From the IMG/VR virus record IMGVR_UViG_3300028610_002873: a stretch of DNA of 64,000 bases; one strand, given 5' to 3'. This document shows, piece after piece, positions 3,641-64,000 of this stretch. The notes below the pieces were generated by a model. That model ran no database searches and was not told the DNA's origin. It saw only the letters and a list, made by a program, of their open reading frames with translations. How positions within the stretch are numbered: position 1 is the first letter of the stretch; each line of letters begins with the position of its first letter. The position numbers and the translations under genes were made by a program. The stretch comes from a virus.

Positions 3641-4141
3641 TCATTCAACCCTCACACTTATATCAATATCAATATCTGGAATATCAGGTATTGGTATTGC
3701 AGGTAAATCAGGCAGATTTGGAAAAGGAATGGCCAAACTTGGTGGAAATGGGATGCTTGGTAATCCTAATGATGGCAAAGTTGGTAAATCAAGATCTGGT
3801 ACATCAAGATCAGATGAAAATTCAGGTAAATCAAGATCAGGTTGATTTGGCGAATCAGGTAAACTAGGAAATGGTATAGTCAAACTAGGTGGAAACGGAA
3901 TAGAAGGTAAACCTAATGATGGTAAACCAGCTATATTAACATCAGGTACATCGAGATCAGATGAAAATTCAGGTAAATCAAGATCAGGTTGATTTGGCAA
4001 ATCAGGTAAACTAGGAAATGGTATAGTTAAACTAGGTGGAAAAGGAATACTAGGTAATTCAAGTATTGGTTGACGAAATTCAAAATTAAAAACTTCATCT
4101 TCATCAATTTTTCCAATTGCTGTTGTTACAAGAGTTGACAC
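3641..4141 (-). CDS. proline-rich tandem-repeat protein, 166 aa (baseplate module)
   Basis: Contains 2.8 copies of a 49-aa unit, LPSIPFPPSLTIPFPSLPDLPNQPDLDLPEFSSDLDVPD... It is contiguous with its neighbours in the gene chain. Confidence 0.6.
   Translation of the reverse strand: MSTLVTTAIGKIDEDEVFNFEFRQPILELPSIPFPPSLTIPFPSLPDLPNQPDLDLPEFSSDLDVPDVNIAGLPSLGLPSIPFPPSLTIPFPSLPDSPNQPDLDLPEFSSDLDVPDLDLPTLPSLGLPSIPFPPSLAIPFPNLPDLPAIPIPDIPDIDIDISVRVE
3644..4057. repeat. 147-bp tandem repeat (about 2.8 copies) inside the proline-rich CDS
   Basis: The DNA segment caggttgatttggc[g/a]aatcaggtaaactaggaaatggtatagt recurs with a 147-bp period. Confidence 0.85.
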
Positions 4142-11519: not shown

Positions 11520-11590
11520 TTTGCATTCCCCCAATTAATAATCTTTTTGATTATTTTGTTTGGAACGTTAATTAATTTTATAAATCGTAC

Positions 11591-11609
11591 TGTTTTACAA
11601 TGTTATACA
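11591..11609. promoter_or_regulatory. TGTTATACA-type dyad (TGTTTTACA a TGTTATACA) upstream of the chaperone/TMP operon
   Basis: Direct dyad in the tube-chaperone intergenic region. It belongs to a recurring motif family. Confidence 0.5.
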
Positions 11610-11634
11610 ATTATCTTACTTTAAAACCTCTCGA

Positions 11635-21675: not shown

Positions 21676-21768
21676 TTAATTATTTGCCCAAATTCTGACT
21701 AAAACATCAATTGTAAGCCTAAATTGCGACCAAAACATTAATTGTAAGCCCAAATTCTGACCAAAGTA
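21676..21768. repeat. three tandem 31-bp units; the third is the real 3' end of ORF 21738..22028
   Basis: Units 21676-21706, 21707-21737 and 21738-21768. On the minus strand they read VLVRIWANN*, VLVAI*AYN* and LVRIWAYN*. Confidence 0.8.
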
Positions 21769-24341: not shown

Positions 24342-24360
24342 TGTTATACAGTGTTATACA
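24342..24360. promoter_or_regulatory. perfect direct dyad TGTTATACA g TGTTATACA, 20 nt upstream of the capsid ATG
   Basis: Read directly from the sequence; intergenic. Confidence 0.55.
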
Positions 24361-27445: not shown

Positions 27446-27464
27446 TGTTATACATTGTTATACA
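27446..27464. promoter_or_regulatory. perfect direct dyad TGTTATACA t TGTTATACA, 9 nt upstream of the protease ATG
   Basis: Read directly from the sequence. Confidence 0.55.
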
Positions 27465-32594: not shown

Positions 32595-32613
32595 TGTTAT
32601 ACAGTGTTATACA
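32595..32613. promoter_or_regulatory. perfect direct dyad TGTTATACA g TGTTATACA, 3 nt upstream of the terS-candidate ATG
   Basis: Read directly from the sequence. Confidence 0.55.
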
Positions 32614-33699: not shown

Positions 33700-33728
33700 T
33701 TGACATTTATATTACAGTGTGTTATAGT
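33700..33728 (+). promoter_or_regulatory. near-consensus sigma70 promoter TTGACA-17-TATAGT with TGn extended -10
   Basis: TTGACA at 33700-33705 and TATAGT at 33723-33728. The ATG at 33735 lies 7 nt after the -10, which predicts a leaderless mRNA. Confidence 0.65.
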
Positions 33729-33734
33729 ATTAAT

Positions 33735-33935
33735 ATGAAGTCAAGAGAAAGAGAAAATTTTGATAAAGGTTTTAAAAAGGGTGTCGAAGACGCTAAAGAT
33801 TTAAACCCAAACGAAACCAACGCTCGATCAAATGAAGATTATTCAACTGGATATATGCTCGGAACTATCTATTTTACTGAAGGTAAAAATACCGATTCTA
33901 CTAATGACGCTTGGTCTGAGATTCAAGCTGCTTAA
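33735..33935 (+). CDS. hypothetical protein, 66 aa, plus-strand, probably leaderless
   Basis: One of only two credible plus-strand genes in the window. The track ORF starts at a TTG inside the promoter (33687), so I use the in-frame ATG 33735. Its 3' end overlaps the convergent gene by 4 nt. Confidence 0.5.
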   Translation: MKSRERENFDKGFKKGVEDAKDLNPNETNARSNEDYSTGYMLGTIYFTEGKNTDSTNDAWSEIQAA

Positions 33936-34216: not shown

Positions 34217-34440
34217 TATAATAATTCCCTACCATCTAATCGATATTTATTTTTTGGATGAAACAATTCAATCTCTGGCCCTAACCATTTATTTGTCTTT
34301 TTATCCTTCAATCTAAATCTCTCATACATCCCATCTAAAAATGAACCCCAAACTAATTCATAACCGTCAAACTGTTCTAAAAATCGGTAAGCGTTAATCC
34401 ACCATTGACCAGTTCTTTTCATGCTACTTTTTTCTTCCAC
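34216..34440 (-). CDS. hypothetical protein, 74 aa
   Basis: ORF in the gene chain. Confidence 0.5.
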   Translation of the reverse strand: MEEKSSMKRTGQWWINAYRFLEQFDGYELVWGSFLDGMYERFRLKDKKTNKWLGPEIELFHPKNKYRLDGRELL

Positions 34441-34985
34441 ATTTTATTCATACATCCACGAATCTTTTCTGAACTTTCAACATAATCTAAATATTTTAAA
34501 GTATTTTCGATTATTTTATGTCCTAAAACGGTCTGAACTAAATGAATATCTCTAGATGAATCATAAAGTCTTACTCCTTGAGTATGCCTGAGTGAATGCA
34601 ATCCTTTATTTTTATTTGGTCTATATTGATCCCAAATTTGTCGGCATCTTCTAACAGATATTGGAAAAAGTTTTTGATTATCAGAGAAGTGTTTTGCGTA
34701 TTCTTTTAACTCATTAAAAAAGGGTTTGGGTAAAGGAATAGTTCTATCATTACTTCTTTTTCGCCCTTTTATAGTAATACATTCATCATTACCTAAATTT
34801 GATTTTAATATGTTAATTAATTCAATCCCTCTCGCGCCTGTAAAAAGACTAAGCCGCAACATGATTGAATCTCTTTCACCTTTATGGTTTTCAAGTAAAG
34901 TGAAAAGTTGATTTACTTCACTATCACTTAAAAATTTATTTTCAGTTAACCTAGAGTCTTTTTTATTAAAATTATTCATTTTCAA
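34419..34985 (-). CDS. short tyrosine recombinase (catalytic domain only, FimB/XerC-like size), 188 aa
   Basis: Catalytic signature: TGARGIE (R), HSLRHT (HxxR), LGHK (H) and LKYLDY (Y). Confidence 0.75.
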   Translation of the reverse strand: MKMNNFNKKDSRLTENKFLSDSEVNQLFTLLENHKGERDSIMLRLSLFTGARGIELINILKSNLGNDECITIKGRKRSNDRTIPLPKPFFNELKEYAKHFSDNQKLFPISVRRCRQIWDQYRPNKNKGLHSLRHTQGVRLYDSSRDIHLVQTVLGHKIIENTLKYLDYVESSEKIRGCMNKMWKKKVA

Positions 34986-35449
34986 TTTCTCCTTAAATCA
35001 AATTCAGGATAATCATCAACATACCAACCTTGTTTTCTTGCCTGGTTTTCAATAGACGACCCCAGTTCACCACATTCTTGAGCATCCTTTTTAATTTTGG
35101 ATGTTTCTTTTTTTGAATCTTCATGCTTAGCAAGTGAATAAAATGTATTCGCAGTATTGAAAAGAACTTGTATAAACATTTGTACCTGAAAAGGAGATAA
35201 TTCAAAGAATCCTAAATTAGAATTTATATCTGCTTTTTTACATTTAATTTTTAAATTATTAGTATTCATTAAATCTATATATTCATCAAAAAATTTCGGT
35301 ATTTTTTTTCCTGTTTTTTTTACTCCATTCACGAAATGATATAGATCAAATAAACAAACTAATTCTGATTTTCGTAATAAAATTTCTATCACTTCTGGCT
35401 GTTTAGACTGGAATTTGTGATCGACTATTTTTAATTTAAATTTTTCCAT
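34982..35449 (-). CDS. hypothetical protein, 155 aa
   Basis: First gene after the promoter at 35493-35521. It has a 4-nt overlap with the recombinase gene. Confidence 0.5.
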   Translation of the reverse strand: MEKFKLKIVDHKFQSKQPEVIEILLRKSELVCLFDLYHFVNGVKKTGKKIPKFFDEYIDLMNTNNLKIKCKKADINSNLGFFELSPFQVQMFIQVLFNTANTFYSLAKHEDSKKETSKIKKDAQECGELGSSIENQARKQGWYVDDYPEFDLRRN

Positions 35450-39782: not shown

Positions 39783-39811
39783 GTATTACAACGTGTTAAA
39801 TAACATTGCAA
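39783..39811. promoter_or_regulatory. overlapping divergent promoter candidates sharing an ATTACAacGTGT core
   Basis: Plus strand: TGtTAAATA extended -10 at 39794-39802. Minus strand: TTGCAA (39811-39806)-17-TAATAC (39788-39783). Confidence 0.4.
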
Positions 39812-39836
39812 TAAAAACTGTGCTAAACTATTTTAG

Positions 39837-40214
39837 ATGAGATGGCTTTTCATAATTCTATTTATACCTAATTTGTGCAATGCATTAGAAATAACTGAAT
39901 CCTATTTCGAATTCAGAAAATTCTATTTCTCCTCTAACATGGCTGAGATCCCACAATACAAGCCTAAAGAGTCAGTAGCGCTCCTTATGGACGTCAACCT
40001 ATACAAACCCCTACACTGGAACAATCGCGTCCACGGTGTCTCTACAGACGGGCAATTTCGACTCATTGGGTGGCAATTCTATCTGCATTTTAAAATTTTG
40101 ACGCACTTCGAAATTGGATGGGAACATCATAGCCAACATATTTTAGAAAATAGACACCCTATTTTACGATTCCCACATGAAGATAGTTTCTTATTAAGAA
40201 TAAAATTAAAATAA
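39837..40214 (+). CDS. secreted / outer-membrane protein candidate, weakly PagL-like, 125 aa
   Basis: Plus-strand gene with a signal-like N-terminus, MRWLFIILFIPNLCNA. C-terminus EIGWEHHSQHILENRHP...FLLRIKLK parallels the HISN...FLLAKLIFPI end of 40682..41164. Confidence 0.45.
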   Translation: MRWLFIILFIPNLCNALEITESYFEFRKFYFSSNMAEIPQYKPKESVALLMDVNLYKPLHWNNRVHGVSTDGQFRLIGWQFYLHFKILTHFEIGWEHHSQHILENRHPILRFPHEDSFLLRIKLK

Positions 40215-54460: not shown

Positions 54461-54899
54461 ACTTTACTTTACATTACTTCACAAAACTACACTCTACATT
54501 ACAAAACCTGACAGCACTTTCTTCACTTTACAAAACAGCACAGAACAGCACGCTACTACACTCCACGATACTTCACTTTCTTTACTTTACAAAACAGCAC
54601 AAGACTTCACAGCACACAACGTAACAATACGCTACTTTCTTTACTTCACAATACTCTACGAGACATGACTCAACGATACACTACTCTACTTTCTTTACTT
54701 CACTTTACTGAACCGGACGCTACGATACGAAACATGACGTTACTTTCTTTACTTCACCCCACATCACAAAACAACACATCACTTGACAATACTTTCATTA
54801 CTTTACTTCACAATACTACACACTACTTCACATTATTTCACTTTCATTACTTTACAAAACAGAACCAAACTATACACAACTACACAACACAATAAATTT
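54461..54899. repeat. G-depleted periodic repeat array: about 8 units of 49-59 bp headed by yACTTTCwTyACTTyAC
   Basis: Perfect 17-mers TACTTTCTTTACTTCAC lie at 54633, 54687 and 54741, exactly 54 bp apart. Degenerate heads lie at 54461, 54515, 54574, 54790 and 54839. By my count there are only 26 G in 440 nt on the plus strand. Confidence 0.85.
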
Positions 54900-55517
54900 T
54901 TAACATTTTAAATTCTTTTTCTCCTTCCATCGAATTACTTGAAATTGACCAAAATAACCACCTTTATTAACTCGAAAAGATCCTAATCCTGATCGTCTAC
55001 CAGCATCTTCTAAAATCTGTAATGCAATTTCAGGTTCTAAAATTGAATCGTCTACTTGTACATCAAATTGAATATTCCATTTTTCAAATCTAGGTCTACA
55101 AACTATAACTGCACCAGCTTTATAATTTGTTGCTTTTCTAATATCAACTTCAAATTTCTTAATTGGTTTCTTTTTCTTATCAATTAATGTAGCTGATTCA
55201 CCAATTGGTCTAAATACTCCACCAGCAACTGCTTTGATACTTTTTCTACCAGAATTTTTTTGTTTATAATCAGAAGCAACATGGTTAAACGCGCCTGAAA
55301 CATAACCCAATGGAATACAAAAACTACCATCAGTATTTTTATAAACATGTTTCTCAGCAATTTGTCTTGGTGTTAATTCTTCTTTAATTTTTTTCTTACC
55401 AGACTTAGCACCAAGTAATTTAAACTTGTCTTCATCACTCATCTTATGATGTAAAAGCGGTGTGGTTCCTTCTAAATTTACATTATACATTTTCATTTTC
55501 AATTTCTCCTTTTCCAA
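54900..55517 (-). CDS. hypothetical protein, 205 aa, with C-terminal glycine-rich loop (GLGSFRVNKGGYFGQF)
   Basis: The ORF ends at the first base of the repeat array. I recognise no family with confidence. Confidence 0.5.
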   Translation of the reverse strand: MEKEKLKMKMYNVNLEGTTPLLHHKMSDEDKFKLLGAKSGKKKIKEELTPRQIAEKHVYKNTDGSFCIPLGYVSGAFNHVASDYKQKNSGRKSIKAVAGGVFRPIGESATLIDKKKKPIKKFEVDIRKATNYKAGAVIVCRPRFEKWNIQFDVQVDDSILEPEIALQILEDAGRRSGLGSFRVNKGGYFGQFQVIRWKEKKNLKC

Positions 55518-56661: not shown

Positions 56662-57285
56662 TCATAAAATTGCTCCATATCCAACAGCCCAATCATTCTT
56701 ATCAACATGATACATTTTTTGTACTGACTTAAAATAGAAACCTTTTTCATCTTTTCGCAAAACTAATACAGAAATATTATTCACTTGTGCCTGTTTAATT
56801 TCACAAAAACAACCTTTACCAATATGTTTTCTATATTCAGATACAACAACTAATTTTGATTTCTTAACTCTATCGAGATAAGGCTGAATTCTTCCTTTTT
56901 CTCCCATATCACGATTAGGGCATATAACCTTCTTAAAGATCTTTTCCAAAAAAACCAGCTCTTGTTTTTCTCTTTTTGTTCCATAAATCTTTTTGCTATG
57001 CGCATAATAAACCATATAATCCTCTATAGGTTCTAAATTAGAATTAACTGAAGATTCTAATCTTTTCAATTCAATGTCTGTCAATCCATTAATTTCATCA
57101 GATATAGGTTCTAAATAAGCAATTGTATCCATAATTTGTTTTTTAGTAAGCAATTTACAAATACATCTATGTTTACAAATTTCTCCACCACAATTTTTAA
57201 TTGAATTGTTATATTCAGAATAGCATCTTGGTAAATTAGATAGTTTCTTACTGAAAAAATTTTGGAAAAAATTTTTAAGTGACAA
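56662..57285 (-). CDS. leader-family protein 4 (MSLKNFFQNFFSKK), Cys-rich N-terminal region, 207 aa
   Basis: TTG start with GGAGA 5 nt upstream. It is the first gene after the 1.15-kb ORF-free region. Confidence 0.55.
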   Translation of the reverse strand: MSLKNFFQNFFSKKLSNLPRCYSEYNNSIKNCGGEICKHRCICKLLTKKQIMDTIAYLEPISDEINGLTDIELKRLESSVNSNLEPIEDYMVYYAHSKKIYGTKREKQELVFLEKIFKKVICPNRDMGEKGRIQPYLDRVKKSKLVVVSEYRKHIGKGCFCEIKQAQVNNISVLVLRKDEKGFYFKSVQKMYHVDKNDWAVGYGAIL

Positions 57286-57544
57286 TTGGTTCTCCTGTTT
57301 GGCCCAATTCGTGCCAATTTCAATTAAATTGTTTCAATTTGATTGATATTACATTGTATTATGTCTTGTCAAGTAAATGGTGCGAATTTACAGTGTTTCC
57401 TTGCCCACTATCAAAACCTTAGACAATCCTCAACTTGGGCATACCGGGGGGGTGCCATACTATTGTAATCATTGAATAATATAGTTCAACTACATTAGTT
57501 ACAATAAGCCCTTTAAAAAAACGTGTTAGTTCAATAAGTTATCC

Positions 57545-57561
57545 TGTCTAAAGTTTAGACA
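57545..57561. promoter_or_regulatory. perfect palindrome TGTCTAAA g TTTAGACA (second operator-like motif)
   Basis: Related copies lie at 60565-60581 (TGTCAAACTTTTAGACA) and 63896-63912 (TGTTAAACTTTTAAACA). Confidence 0.45.
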
Positions 57562-58213
57562 CCCTGCTGGACTGCTGATCTCGTAATGATATCAAATAGA
57601 TATTCAATATGCGTATTGAATATTCAATTCAAAACATAGTCTATGAGCTACAATATAATGCGCCATAATATACTGTAACACAATGTAATATATGGACTAA
57701 TACCTAATCCTTAATTACATCAACCCAATCGAACCGCTGTATTGACATTGGATAAAATCAAACTAACTACTGATGCCCGTCCGTGTCCACTACAGGGCAT
57801 AGTTTCCGGGTATACCTATAAGCGGTAGTGCTGAGTCACGGTATGATAGGGCTATTGCAGTCTGAGTCTGGTCGAATTCAAATTGAATCAAATTACTTTA
57901 TATTGTGTCAATTTAAACATGTGTCCTCAGCGACACAATAAGAGAGAGAAATCGATGTCTCTTTACAGCGCTTGGTAAGGATTATCGGGCCCATTGTTCA
58001 ATTATCAAGTCTATTGTTTAAGTATGTATATGTATATACCATAGGTATTGCATGTATATGTATATACATCTAGGAATTAACAGTCCTATAGTCTGATACC
58101 AATTGACTTCTTAACATGCCTTACAATCGATCCTTATAGGGTCTATACTGTATTCTATTACACTGTATTATCTAATTTAGATTGTCTTAATTGTTTGTTT
58201 TTATTGGATTATC

Positions 58214-58232
58214 TGTATAACACTGTTATACA
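58214..58232. promoter_or_regulatory. perfect palindrome TGTATAACA c TGTTATACA
   Basis: It is flanked by 17-bp direct repeats TTAGATTGTCTTAATTG at 58177-58193 and 58257-58273. Confidence 0.55.
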
Positions 58233-58455
58233 CTTGATTAGTATTTAGATCATTAATTAGATTGTCTTAATTGAATTGCTTATAGTTTAGATACCATTCA
58301 ATTGTATTGATTAATCTATTATTTAAAATCTTATTATGCTTTATTATCTAATAGTCCTACACTATTAGTAATATTAAATAACTATGTATTTTTAGCTGTA
58401 TAAATAGCTAAATATCAGTAATTAGCTAAGTTAGTAGCTATTTGTTATTGATCTA

Positions 58456-58794
58456 TTATTTAAAATAGCCCGGATCAATTATAAATTGCTTAGATTTAAC
58501 AACTTGATCTAAAAATAACTTAGCATTGTTAATCATAGTGAGTGTAGTATTATGTTTACAATTAGTAGTTCCGTTTGTTTCATTACATTGGTAACATGGA
58601 GTAAATCCGAAATGTATTGCTAAACTTGGCCAGTTCCAATCTGTTTGAACTAGTTTACCTCTACCGTCTAAATGTCTGATTGTATAACACCCGAAATATT
58701 CGAATTCTAATGAGATAAGATTGGATTGACTTTTTTTGATTTCTTTTTGTCTTAATAGTCGTTTTATTAATTGTCTTAATTGTGAATATTTCAT
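58456..58794 (-). CDS. hypothetical Cys-containing protein, 112 aa
   Basis: It is the last gene before the ORF-free region. Confidence 0.45.
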   Translation of the reverse strand: MKYSQLRQLIKRLLRQKEIKKSQSNLISLEFEYFGCYTIRHLDGRGKLVQTDWNWPSLAIHFGFTPCYQCNETNGTTNCKHNTTLTMINNAKLFLDQVVKSKQFIIDPGYFK

Positions 58795-60371: not shown

Positions 60372-60411
60372 TTTAATACCCGTTTCCTTTCATTTCATTC
60401 AATATCTAAAC

Positions 60412-60606
60412 ATTGTAATTGCAACGAGCATGCCAGTTTTGTATAACAGTGTTATACACATAATCATTGGATATTTTGTATAACAGTGCTATACATGATT
60501 GATTAAAATGACAAAAATTGTAATGGTGTATAACACTGTTATACAATATCGAGCACTTATAAACTGTCAAACTTTTAGACAGTGTATAATACTTAGACAC
60601 TATAAC
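60412..60606. repeat. control-region repeat, copy 1 (about 195 bp) with three TGTATAACA-n-TGTTATACA palindromes
   Basis: Palindromes lie at 60440-60458, 60477-60495 (one mismatch) and 60527-60545. A second motif lies at 60565-60581. The region aligns with 63743-63937. Confidence 0.8.
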
Positions 60607-60607
60607 A
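60599..60607 (-). promoter_or_regulatory. extended -10 candidate TGtTATAGT preceded by the ATTACAacGTGT core
   Basis: It has the same core as the 33700 and 35493 promoters but lacks a good -35. Confidence 0.35.
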
Positions 60608-60670
60608 CGTTGTAATAACAAGTGTTTTTCCCGGCCTGAATAGCACAATAGTTTAAACACTACATGAAAG

Positions 60671-63634: not shown

Positions 63635-63654
63635 AAAAATTCTCCTTATTATAT

Positions 63655-63679
63655 GAGGCCAGATTTATTGTCTGGCCTC
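63655..63679. promoter_or_regulatory. GC-rich hairpin GAGGCCAGA-tttattg-TCTGGCCTC in the leader of the 196-aa gene
   Basis: A perfect 9-bp stem lies 21 nt upstream of the ATG, next to the AAGGAG RBS. Confidence 0.45.
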
Positions 63680-63742
63680 ACTTAATTTCTTTTCTCATGT
63701 TAATCTTTCTTTTTTAGATTGATTAACTACCTTTGTTGATAA

Positions 63743-63937
63743 ATTGTAATTGCAACGAGCATGCCAGTTTTGTATAACAGTGTTATACACGTAATTACTG
63801 AATATTTTGTATAACACTGTTATACACGATTAGTTAAAATGACAAAAATTTGTATTAAACATTATCAGACAATGTAATATCAACCACTTATAAACTGTTA
63901 AACTTTTAAACAGTGTAAAATCCTTAAACACTAAATT
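63743..63937. repeat. control-region repeat, copy 2 (about 195 bp)
   Basis: Palindromes lie at 63771-63789 and 63808-63826. The third site is degenerate. The second motif lies at 63896-63912. Confidence 0.8.
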
Positions 63938-64000
63938 ATGAATTCATATAATAGCTATTATTCAAATTATTAAAATCATTACATTTAAAATTATTTTAAT

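Follow-up and report, generated by a model that had tools for sequence, protein, structure and literature searches.

The largest non-coding gap in this stretch of DNA from an uncultured phage is most likely an enlarged promoter/operator region rather than a known RNA gene, a replication origin or a genome end. The gap, here called the island, occupies positions 57286 to 58455 of the window, by which we mean the whole 64,000-nt stretch of DNA that was analysed. We hold with roughly even confidence that it is an expanded early control region for the operon downstream, which comprises genes for proteins of 207, 55, 84, 168 and 98 amino acids, vipr, and a vrRNA array. Readings of the island as an origin, a noncoding RNA, a genome end or leftover DNA are weaker. 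If the main reading is true, the island belongs to a familiar class, the early regulatory regions of phages, and is unusual for its size. What makes it interesting would then be the genes under its control, because among candidate promoter regions it is the closest to an operon with a VIPR system at its end. VIPR is a recently described phage RNA-guided DNA-silencing machinery, and to our knowledge the timing of VIPR systems during infection has not been studied so far. Current understanding is unchanged unless transcripts or binding proteins are mapped.

Extent and non-coding status

The island is a true non-coding gap of 1170 nt, the biggest in the window. The gaps that rank after it measure 458 nt and 366 nt, the latter being clipped by the window end (525 nt in full), and the genome is otherwise tightly packed. 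Each of the six frames contains 25 to 41 stops of all three kinds, so reassignment of a stop codon cannot rescue a gene. Small peptides were also rejected, because the island contains no small ORF that has a Shine-Dalgarno site. Gene callers leave it empty on three public contigs. The claim of the initial annotation that this stretch is free of ORFs is thus borne out.

Neither is the island decayed coding sequence. Six-frame HMM searches against PHROGs and Pfam were empty, the codon-usage score is below zero in all six frames even when stops are disregarded, and a period-3 signal is lacking. The sequence is 100% identical across three independent assemblies (ENA, JGI and Logan) and is therefore not an assembly artefact. 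An inverton appears unlikely, the orientation being the same in all three.

Sequence features

The genome contains two paralogous early control regions, CR1 (63635-64159, 525 nt) and CR2 (60372-60670, 299 nt), which are true paralogues by alignment (score 267). Features of the island are listed below in the order of the sense (minus) strand.

57286-58455, unstranded: ORF-free island as a whole, flanked by the genes for the 112-aa protein (58456-58794, minus) and the 207-aa protein (56662-57285, minus)
58393-58440, unstranded: four TAGCT(A/G) mini-palindromes forming overlapping 7-bp hairpins (58391-58412 and 58405-58428), within the 21%-GC block 58200-58455 and immediately past the point where the 112-aa gene stops
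58348-58368, unstranded: hairpin CTAATAGT-ccTac-ACTATTAG with 8-bp arms, without a U-run after it on the sense strand
58257-58273, unstranded: copy 2 of the exactly repeated 17-mer TTAGATTGTCTTAATTG, flanking the operator
58214-58232, unstranded: perfect operator palindrome TGTATAACAcTGTTATACA (9+1+9), with two to three copies in each of CR1 and CR2
58177-58193, unstranded: copy 1 of the 17-mer TTAGATTGTCTTAATTG, an exact repeat
58156-58171, plus: promoter-family motif TATTACACTGTATTAT with a TATTAT -10-like hexamer, pointing away from the genes
58024-58067, unstranded: two copies of the self-complementary ATGTATATGTATATAC, 28 nt apart
57920-57937, minus: terminator-like hairpin TGTGTC-gctgag-GACACA, then UGUUUAAAUU; the only one on the sense strand
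57770-57880, unstranded: GC-richer core (51% GC) with an ATGCCC...GGGCAT hairpin, a GGTATACC palindrome and GACTCAG twice at a 30-nt spacing
57672-57690, minus: promoter-family motif TATTACATTGTGTTACAGT with extended -10 TGtTACAGT, sense-oriented
57600-57628, unstranded: hairpin ATATTCAATA-tgcg-TATTGAATAT next to an ATTGAAT/ATTCAAT palindrome; CR1 has a comparable ATTCAAT cluster in its upstream portion
57545-57561, unstranded: palindrome TGTCTAAAgTTTAGACA, with a degenerate relative at 57409-57425
57444-57456, unstranded: G7/C7 tract, 13-mer CCGGGGGGGTGCC, inside the imperfect inverted repeat GGCATACC-GGGGG-GGTGCC
57346-57372, minus: predicted sigma-70-type promoter by consensus match, TTGACA (57372-57367), 15 nt, TAATAT (57351-57346)
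57301-57317, minus: sigma-54-like element TTGGCACGAATTGGGCC with GG/GC at -24/-12 spacing, directly upstream of the ribosome-binding site

Much of this inventory had been reported before, and every feature so reported was found where it had been placed: the G7 13-mer, the ATGCCC/GGGCAT pair (57773-57800), the CTGAGTC copies (57832 and 57862), the ATTGTGTC/GACACAAT inverted repeat (57902-57939), the 16-mer pair (58024 and 58052), the exact 17-mer pair (58177 and 58257) and the perfect operator copy between them. The hairpin described at 57601-57622 with 9-bp arms is present, with arms one base pair longer (10 bp, 57600-57623). The palindrome TGTCTAAAgTTTAGACA had been said to have relatives in both control regions. 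It does have one in CR2 (60565-60581), and the relative in CR1 is looser and has a different centre spacing.

Base composition varies sharply along the island. Overall GC content is 32%, compared with 51% in the core, 52% at 57400-57460 and 21% at 58200-58455, so the contrast of the core with its surroundings is real. Composition is also strand-symmetric, with a GC skew near zero inside the island and a strongly negative one in the flanking genes, which counts for a control region.

The richness in palindromes and direct repeats noted earlier exceeds chance. Perfect hairpins with 7-bp arms and loops of at most 12 nt number 16, compared with 2.2 +/- 1.8 in 300 dinucleotide shuffles, making short hairpins about seven times commoner than in shuffled sequence; none of 104 other 1170-nt segments has more than 11. 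Direct repeats reach a length of 17 nt (10.4 in shuffles). The most enriched words are of the TGTATAT type, ATTGAAT occurs seven times (1.0 expected), and three of the window's 12 copies of TAGCTA fall within 31 nt. Such an excess of short perfect palindromes is what DNA-binding sites produce, and RNA folding gives no matching signal.

Elements shared with other control regions

The island has in common with CR1 and CR2 an operator palindrome (TGTATAACAnTGTTATACA), a promoter motif (TATTACAnnGTGTTATAGT), a TGTCTAAA palindrome and ATTGAAT clusters, the last being evident in CR1. Operator half-sites occur 19 times where 0.81 are expected, and palindromic copies are found at 60440, 60527, 63771 and 63808. 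The promoter motif is followed by palindromes of the TGTCTAAA type in the island as well as in CR2, where the relative of TGTCTAAAgTTTAGACA stands after the same motif. Both CR1 and CR2 also carry a sigma-54-like TGGCATgctcgTTGCA. Near its first gene the island has TTGGCACGAATTGGGCC, which, when compared with the TGGCAT-N5-TTGCA type, has GG and GC correctly spaced and a poor -12 block.

The promoter-family motif, TATTACAnnGTGTTAT(AGT), is found 16 times in the window at no more than three mismatches, compared with 2.25 expected, so the cores previously reported in the island belong to an enriched motif. Copies outside the island lie directly upstream of genes and in the same orientation as the genes:

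35511-35496, minus: motif with TTGACA-N17-TATAGT, preceding the 35449 gene
33656-33641, minus: motif preceding the 33617 gene
33710-33725, plus: motif preceding a 66-aa plus-strand ORF starting at 33735
about 39.8 kb, plus: motif preceding a plus-strand ORF (39837-40214)
heads of CR1 and of CR2: motif copies

Three copies lie within the island, one sense-oriented (57690-57672) and two opposite (57347 and 58156, plus). In form, the sense-oriented copy matches the copies that immediately precede the minus-strand genes at 35449 and 33617 and the plus-strand ones at 33735 and 39837. The copy at 57347-57362 overlaps the TTGACA promoter, and it forms a 15/16 inverted repeat with 57676-57691.

Several observations count against a control region. 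Two of the three island motif copies have weak -10 elements in either orientation, and the spacer of the TTGACA promoter is short, at 15 nt. Generic sigma-70 and sigma-54 consensus scans of the window gave matches not above chance.

The island also differs from CR1 and CR2. It has one operator, whereas they have two or three; its sigma-54-like match is only partial; and it is 1170 nt long, compared with 525 and 299 nt. Because CR1 and CR2 manage with these lengths, about 450-700 nt of the island are surplus to a simple promoter/operator role. Extended homology to CR1 and CR2 was rejected: once the 19-nt operator is masked, Smith-Waterman scores are at shuffle level (55 vs a null of 59, and 47 vs 43), and only short motifs are shared.

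Proposed organization of a putative control region

The island would join CR1 and CR2 as a third early-gene control region, much the longest of them, and would act as a DNA-level regulatory sequence composed of promoters, an operator and further palindromes that bind proteins. It would separate two co-oriented early operons and drive the downstream one, that is, the genes for the 207-, 55-, 84-, 168- and 98-aa proteins, vipr and eight vrRNAs. Transcription from the upstream operon would enter the AT-rich block and probably stop at the 57937-57920 hairpin, the sole terminator-like site. This hairpin is nested within the ATTGTGTC/GACACAAT repeat, which represents an alternative pairing.

Transcription might then restart from two places, the extended -10 promoter (57690-57672) and the TTGACA promoter (57372-57346). 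Candidate sites for phage or host regulators are the operator with the two 17-mers beside it, the TAGCT cluster, the hairpins with ATTGAAT and the TGTCTAAA palindromes, and sites of these types recur in the other two control regions. No repressor or activator was identified. The sigma-54-like element adjoins the ribosome-binding site AGGAG (57296-57292), which is followed by N6 and the TTG start (57285) of the 207-aa gene. The island ends at this ribosome-binding site and start codon, and the gene is the first of the co-oriented block.

The plus-strand motif copies at 57347 and 58156 point the other way, and one of them would face the 57690 promoter across 314 nt. With motif copies so opposed, convergent transcription or antisense RNA may add a switch. 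The GC-richer core and its surroundings (approximately 57700-58140, about 450 nt) are left over by this model and could hold upstream activator sites.

The interval that separates the island from the vrRNA array has neither a sense-strand terminator-like site nor a further promoter-family motif, and promoter-like matches in it are not above chance. The absence of a terminator-like site or promoter motif in between makes the island the nearest candidate promoter region for vipr. The analysis establishes that the island is non-coding and absent from relatives, which motifs it has, where they lie and how enriched they are, and the order of the genes; that its promoters are active, that transcription terminates, that proteins bind and that the genes are co-transcribed as far as vipr is inferred.

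Phage T7 has clustered early promoters at its left end, and P2/186-type phages have face-to-face promoter switches. Like these regions, the island is non-coding, lies directly upstream of an early operon and contains several promoter-like elements; its operator recurs at the genome's other early promoters, and convergent promoters are possible. In contrast, its GC-richer core of about 450 nt has no counterpart.

RNA structure

The GC-richer sequence, of which about 450 nt are unexplained, and the terminator-like hairpin on the sense strand might instead reflect one or more noncoding RNA genes of an undescribed family, either an RNA of about 230 nt that has the 57937-57920 hairpin at its end or one that spans the core. 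We consider this doubtful. A putative 375-nt leader (57660-57286) folds somewhat better than shuffled sequences (z -1.95), and phage VIPR loci have long ncRNA-encoding flanks (10.64898/2026.04.26.720920). However, the core on its two strands gives folding z-scores of -0.8 and -0.5, and the segment 58150-57905 gives -0.6. Folding of both strands in sliding 150-nt segments, together with five targeted folds, gave z from -0.2 to -2.1 inside the island, with nothing below -2.1, and the signals that do appear sit over DNA palindromes of the AT-rich block.

A structured RNA had been among the suggested roles, and an Infernal search against Rfam had been suggested as a check. That search (Rfam 15) gave no match at the gathering score nor at E<=10, and together with the fold scores it speaks against this role. 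ARAGORN found no tRNA or tmRNA in the island, and pentamers of the vrRNA type are absent from it. Moreover, no homologue was found in phage, plasmid, viral-contig, metagenome and genome collections, and there is therefore no covariation support.

Comparison with replication origins

Alternately, the island could be a replication origin, in which the AT-rich block (58200-58455) unwinds, two-copy repeats or palindromes bind an initiator, and a promoter may give a priming transcript, as in transcription-activated phage origins. We regard this as unlikely, although we would rank it before an RNA gene. The 21%-GC block, an AT-rich segment of the kind that unwinds, adjoins several distinct repeats and palindromes, and the promoter-family motif at 58156 points into it. 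Origins are known in large repeat-rich non-coding regions of other mobile elements, for example, PLE, in which a 2.7-kb non-coding region is bound by RepA_N (PMC7145576). The island resembles the PLE origin in being large and non-coding and in having several repeat types and an AT-rich segment, but it lacks an iteron array, an adjacent initiator gene and a skew change (PMC7145576).

Exact repeats in the island have at most two copies each, spaced by 28, 80 and 137 nt and without helical phasing; no iteron array of at least three copies is present, and the TAGCT sites are four words of only 5-6 nt. The DnaA box TTATCCACA has no match at up to one mismatch in 57286-58455, and no GATC cluster was found in the island. 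Third-position GC skew of the sense strand, a profile whose inspection had also been proposed, is positive on both sides without a change in polarity. Signatures of an initiator, a helicase or a primase are absent from the flanking genes; the genes for recombination and DNA metabolism are located on the far side of CR1, over 6 kb upstream; and the island is missing from relatives. With no iterons, DnaA box, GATC cluster, skew switch or neighbouring initiator gene, the suggested role as an origin is not upheld.

Relatives and genome position

The island is restricted to this lineage as far as the searched collections extend. Full-length relatives of the two flanking proteins were sought among 5.8 billion proteins, giving self-matches only, and IMG/VR scans with these proteins were empty. 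BLAST of the island against phage and plasmid collections was empty as well, and DNA pattern scans of viral, metagenome and genome collections, run with pieces of the island or with the CR promoter, gave no match. A pattern search with TGTATAACAnTGTTATACA returned ten unrelated prophage contigs that have only the operator in common. Six related phages were reached through the vipr gene. All lack the island, are not syntenic upstream and have no similarity to it beyond the operator. Upstream of the shared vipr these relatives carry ordinary genes and no such island, one half of the outcome that the initial annotation had named as counting against it. The absence from relatives also counts against the control-region reading, since it leaves selection on the island without comparative support.

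A lineage-specific island flanked by two genes without full-length relatives could be residual DNA, that is, a scar left in a hypervariable early region where control-region modules, or a mobile element since lost, underwent recombination, duplication and decay. The early regions of relatives are not syntenic, only short motifs are common to the island and CR1/CR2, and imperfect 28-nt inverted repeats occur at 57315-57342 and 57878-57905. These repeats are not flanked by a target-site duplication, however, and a transposon or MITE was rejected on this ground and because they are of low complexity. Also, residual coding signal is absent (six-frame HMM, codon usage and period-3), the rest of the genome is tightly packed, and the palindrome excess, perfect operator and exact 17-mer pair argue for maintained sites. 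We therefore judge residual DNA to be improbable, ranking it after an RNA gene.

It is very improbable that the island is a physical landmark of the genome, be it the boundary of a terminal repeat, a packaging site or an injection-stop region like that of T5. The phage genes all point the same way, as in phages with polar cell entry. The untranslated injection-stop (iss) region of T5, which by definition lies within the terminal repeat and downstream of pre-early genes, has paired DnaA/DnaA* boxes in inverted repeats and is conserved among relatives (10.1101/866236). Paired DnaA boxes, the hallmark of T5, are absent from the island. T5-like phages retain the T5 region in conserved order, whereas the relatives of this phage lack the island. 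No PHROG family matches the neighbouring proteins, and therefore no A1/A2-like genes are seen. In lacking all three, the island differs from the T5 region (10.1101/866236), and the earlier suggestion of an injection stop fails in particular on the boxes and the conservation.

Moreover, ordinary early operons border the island on its two sides, and the terminase and portal genes are about 26 kb away. The public assemblies appear circular or permuted, and their contigs break at the repeated CR1/CR2 operators, not at the island. Overall, none of the roles originally proposed gained positive support, and the promoter and operator motifs listed with them proved the best clue to function.

Relation to the VIPR system

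The VIPR system is found at 54900-55517 plus 54461-54890, with UNNNG repeats. The array of eight vrRNAs is located downstream of vipr (54461-54890), and this is the only place with phased runs of at least five GT or GG pentamers; vrRNA-type tandem pentamers (YNNGG/YNNNG) do not occur in the island. Phage VIPR loci are flanked by long ncRNA-encoding intergenic regions (10.64898/2026.04.26.720920). The island is similar to those regions in lying upstream of vipr and in the same putative transcription unit, but it has no pentamer tract, and five genes separate it from vipr (10.64898/2026.04.26.720920).

Targets of the eight vrRNAs of this phage and of 47 from relatives are not above shuffles in the window under skip rules 0-3. 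For the product of the downstream gene, a single-sequence AlphaFold model was useless (pLDDT 31), and its C-terminal 120-aa family has no match in Pfam, PHROG, NCBIfam or PDB.

A more specific possibility, which we consider a long shot, is that the island is a dedicated VIPR switch. Convergent promoters at 57690 (minus) and 57347 (plus), together with the operator, would time vipr and its eight guide RNAs, and the core would be either a new noncoding RNA or an enhancer-type protein-binding platform without described relatives.

With respect to the control-region reading, the same 9-bp half-site forms a palindrome in the early control regions and a direct repeat before late genes. This dual use hints at a single regulator that orders the whole infection programme.

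A noncoding island ahead of an early operon

The island (57286-58455; 1,170 nucleotides) separates the gene for a 112-aa protein (58456-58794) from that for a 207-aa protein (56662-57285, minus strand) and is the largest noncoding gap of the window; sense denotes the minus strand throughout. Gene callers annotate nothing here in three assemblies. Each of the six frames contains 25 to 41 stop codons, of all three kinds, which bears out the initial annotation's description of the island as free of ORFs, and every feature listed in that annotation is present at its position. Short perfect hairpins number 16, compared with 2.2 ± 1.8 in dinucleotide shuffles (roughly sevenfold more), and this count exceeds that of every other 1,170-nucleotide window of the sequence. 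The reported GC contrast is also genuine: two short blocks reach 51-52%, and 58200-58455 has only 21%. Because all 1,170 nucleotides are identical in three public copies, an assembly artefact is ruled out; the same identity leaves no variation for covariation tests. The island is a real, statistically unusual noncoding region.

Present or recently decayed coding sequence was rejected as an explanation. Six-frame translations have no matches in PHROGs or Pfam, the island lacks small ORFs preceded by a ribosome-binding site, and no period-3 signal is detected there. When trained on the phage's own genes, a codon-usage score is negative in every frame over 57300-58200, even with stops ignored, and positive for the flanking genes.

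Searches of phage and plasmid collections, and exact-pattern scans of viral, metagenome and genome data sets, turned up no DNA similar to the island, and neither flanking protein has a full-length relative among 5.8 billion proteins. Homologues of the gene at 54900-55517 are numerous and gave access to six related contigs. In these contigs no comparable island is present upstream, synteny with the early region of the window is lacking, and the only sequence shared with the island consists of weak operator-like matches. Judging from this lack of a counterpart, synteny or shared sequence, the island is lineage-specific. The absence of the island at this locus in relatives is the first of the findings that the initial annotation had named as counting against its proposals. 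Residual DNA would fit such a lineage-specific, hypervariable setting, but fits poorly with a perfect operator, exact 17-mers and an excess of palindromes, and we regard it as distinctly doubtful.

Proposed RNA, origin and terminus functions

The suggestion of a structured noncoding RNA found no backing in Rfam, in which no family matched at its gathering score or at E<=10. The island contains no tRNA or tmRNA, and folding energies on both strands are ordinary (z about -0.2 to -2.1); the few folding signals coincide with DNA palindromes of the AT-rich block. An undescribed noncoding RNA in the core has nothing positive in its support and is rather improbable.

The only pointers to a replication origin are the AT-rich block, the variety of repeats and an analogy with repeat-rich noncoding origins, of which that of PLE (PMC7145576) is an example, and an origin is unlikely. 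The island has no iteron arrays, DnaA boxes or GATC clusters, an initiator gene is missing, and GC skew at third positions of the sense strand is positive on both flanks of the island, so that the skew change expected of an origin is absent. Also proposed was a terminus or an injection stop like that of T5. The T5 region has paired DnaA boxes and is conserved among related phages (10.1101/866236); neither of these defining features is found here, and this explanation is very improbable.

Shared putative operator and promoter motifs

The island shares short motifs with CR1 (63635-64159) and CR2 (60372-60670), the phage's two other early control regions. CR1 and CR2 are clear paralogues, both noncoding, and five or six small genes follow each as a block. 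The promoter and operator motifs noticed initially in the island recur in CR1, in CR2 and upstream of genes, as follows.

Predicted operator and promoter elements
58214-58232, island: perfect copy of operator palindrome TGTATAACAnTGTTATACA, with an exact 17-mer pair on either side
57690-57672, minus strand, island: sense-oriented TATTACAnnGTGTTAT motif, TGtTACAGT
57347-57362 and 58156-58171, island: TATTACAnnGTGTTAT motifs in opposite orientation
57372-57346, minus strand, island 3' end: predicted promoter with perfect TTGACA, 15 nt, TAATAT
35511-35496, minus strand: TATTACAnnGTGTTAT motif, TTGACA-N17-TATAGT, preceding the 35449 gene
33656-33641, minus strand: TATTACAnnGTGTTAT motif preceding the 33617 gene
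Plus strand: TATTACAnnGTGTTAT motif preceding the 66-aa ORF at 33735
Plus strand: TATTACAnnGTGTTAT motif preceding ORF 39837-40214
Heads of CR1 and CR2: one TATTACAnnGTGTTAT motif each

The TATTACAnnGTGTTAT(AGT) motif is enriched (16 copies, 2.25 expected). Since its copies outside the island lie directly upstream of genes and in the orientation of the gene, it appears to be a promoter that acts in one direction and has an extended -10 element. The island holds three copies, one sense and two opposite. The TGTATAACAnTGTTATACA palindrome has two or three copies in each of CR1 and CR2, and the island likewise shares TGTCTAAA-type palindromes with CR2 and ATTGAAT clusters with CR1. Immediately before the 207-aa gene, a sigma-54-like TTGGCACGAATTGGGCC and then AGGAG-N6-TTG come after the TTGACA/TAATAT pair; the equivalent place in both CR1 and CR2 has TGGCATgctcgTTGCA. 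Only short motifs make up this kinship: once the operator is masked, the island scores no better than shuffled sequence when aligned with CR1 and CR2.

These elements suggest an oversized regulatory region for early genes, whose core they leave unexplained, and we consider this explanation, including the following mechanism, to have about an even chance of being correct. Read-through from the upstream operon would enter the AT-rich block and probably stop at the single sense-strand terminator-like hairpin (57937-57920). Putative regulator sites comprise the operator with its 17-mers, a TAGCT cluster, ATTGAAT hairpins and the TGTCTAAA palindromes. Transcription might then restart at 57690-57672 and 57372-57346 and continue through the 207-aa gene to vipr. 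The motif copies at 57347 and 57690 form a 15/16 inverted repeat, and because the former faces the 57690 promoter across 314 nucleotides, convergent-promoter interference is possible. The regulatory explanation has several weak points: some 450-700 nucleotides of the island are surplus by comparison with CR1 and CR2, its GC-richer core is left unexplained, several -10 elements are weak, matches in generic promoter scans are not above chance, and no regulator was identified.

The TGGCATgctcgTTGCA sequences after the last TGTATAACAnTGTTATACA palindrome (minus strand; 60435-60420 in CR2, 63766-63751 in CR1) are identical. Use of sigma-54 promoters by a phage would be unusual, and here the match is to the consensus only. 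CR1 occupies 63635-64000 of the window and runs on to about 64159 in another contig (L020, 9477-10000); a 72-aa gene diverges from it, and breaks in public contigs fall at the CR1/CR2 repeats.

The exact operator palindrome also occurs in promoter-like settings in unrelated prophage contigs (L005-L014, IMG/VR; GC 36-54%), sometimes with five more matching flanking bases (for example, TTGACAttaTGTATAACAGTGTTATACAAT in L013), which suggests a widely used type of repressor site. The same 9-bp half-site forms a direct repeat, TGTATAACAnTGTATAACA, on the minus strand at 11591-11611, 24342-24360, 27446-27464 and 32595-32613. Three copies lie 3-20 nucleotides upstream of late-gene start codons (24321, 27436, 32591), so near that leaders would be very short, and a looser copy is 57 nucleotides upstream of the start at 11534. 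In relatives, a single half-site is placed likewise ahead of terminase-region genes (L015 17853, L016 14279, L023 12775). The repeat may serve as a late promoter or bind a regulator.

The downstream VIPR system

The main value added here lies in the island's position ahead of a VIPR operon and in the system of regulatory motifs that it has in common with the remainder of the genome. VIPR systems are already known from 2026 preprints (10.64898/2026.04.26.720920 and 10.64898/2026.04.26.720927), and the definition in the former (bioRxiv) is applied. By homology, the gene at 54900-55517 (minus strand) encodes a Vipr protein: the profile of its family matches SUSP1 Vipr, a solved structure, over its full length (PDB 36pp, E 2.4e-7), and its AlphaFold model (pLDDT 78) matches Cas7/Csm3 RAMP proteins. 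The 458-nucleotide gap after vipr contains eight vrRNA units set apart by AAAGAAA-type punctuation, each made of 8-12 phased GUNNN pentamers; the array has only 6% C on its sense strand. A similar array, of 2-14 units, follows the homologous gene in all six fetched relatives. On this sequence evidence, 54461-55517 (minus strand) is a complete VIPR system of the YNNNG repeat variety.

Because no sense-strand terminator-like site, promoter-motif copy or sizeable gap lies between the island and the vrRNA array, no candidate promoter region lies nearer to vipr and its guide RNAs than the island, which is itself free of pentamer repeats. Under simple spacing rules, matches in the window to the phage's own vrRNAs and to 47 from relatives are not above chance, and no VIPR self-target was found in the window. 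In the intervening 207-aa protein, residues 91-206 belong to a widespread family of approximately 120 aa (254 hits), for which Pfam, PHROG, NCBIfam and PDB offer no counterpart; the same search gave no match for the Cys-rich N-terminal half.

Genome setting

The phage is uncultured and has a low GC content (32%), and its genes are also found on public contigs of about 106 kb. Contigs with the same genes come from ENA (106,127 bp), from a metagenome at JGI and from Logan. The window carries a contractile-tail gene set with sheath, portal and terminase, and cultured phages are only distant relatives (best portal protein identity about 34%). Nearly all genes are on the minus strand. Two plus-strand regions are likely antisense genes in this otherwise one-directional genome: 33710-33935, with a 66-aa ORF from 33735, and 39790-40214, with a 125-aa ORF (39837-40214). 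Tandem repeats occur at 3705-4057 (minus strand; 147 nucleotides, 2.4 copies, 84% identical), within a tail-region ORF of 166 aa (3641-4141), and at 21686-21765 (31 nucleotides, 2.6 copies), mostly within a short gap between genes of the structural region. A short tyrosine-recombinase-family gene (34419-34985, minus strand; 188 aa) adjoins the packaging genes and is conserved in relatives L015, L016 and L023; candidate roles are dimer resolution, integration or inversion. The sole relative found in species-representative genomes (L019, JAGOVF010000171.1) is a 6.4-kb contig binned in an Oligoflexales MAG, a weak hint at this group as the host.
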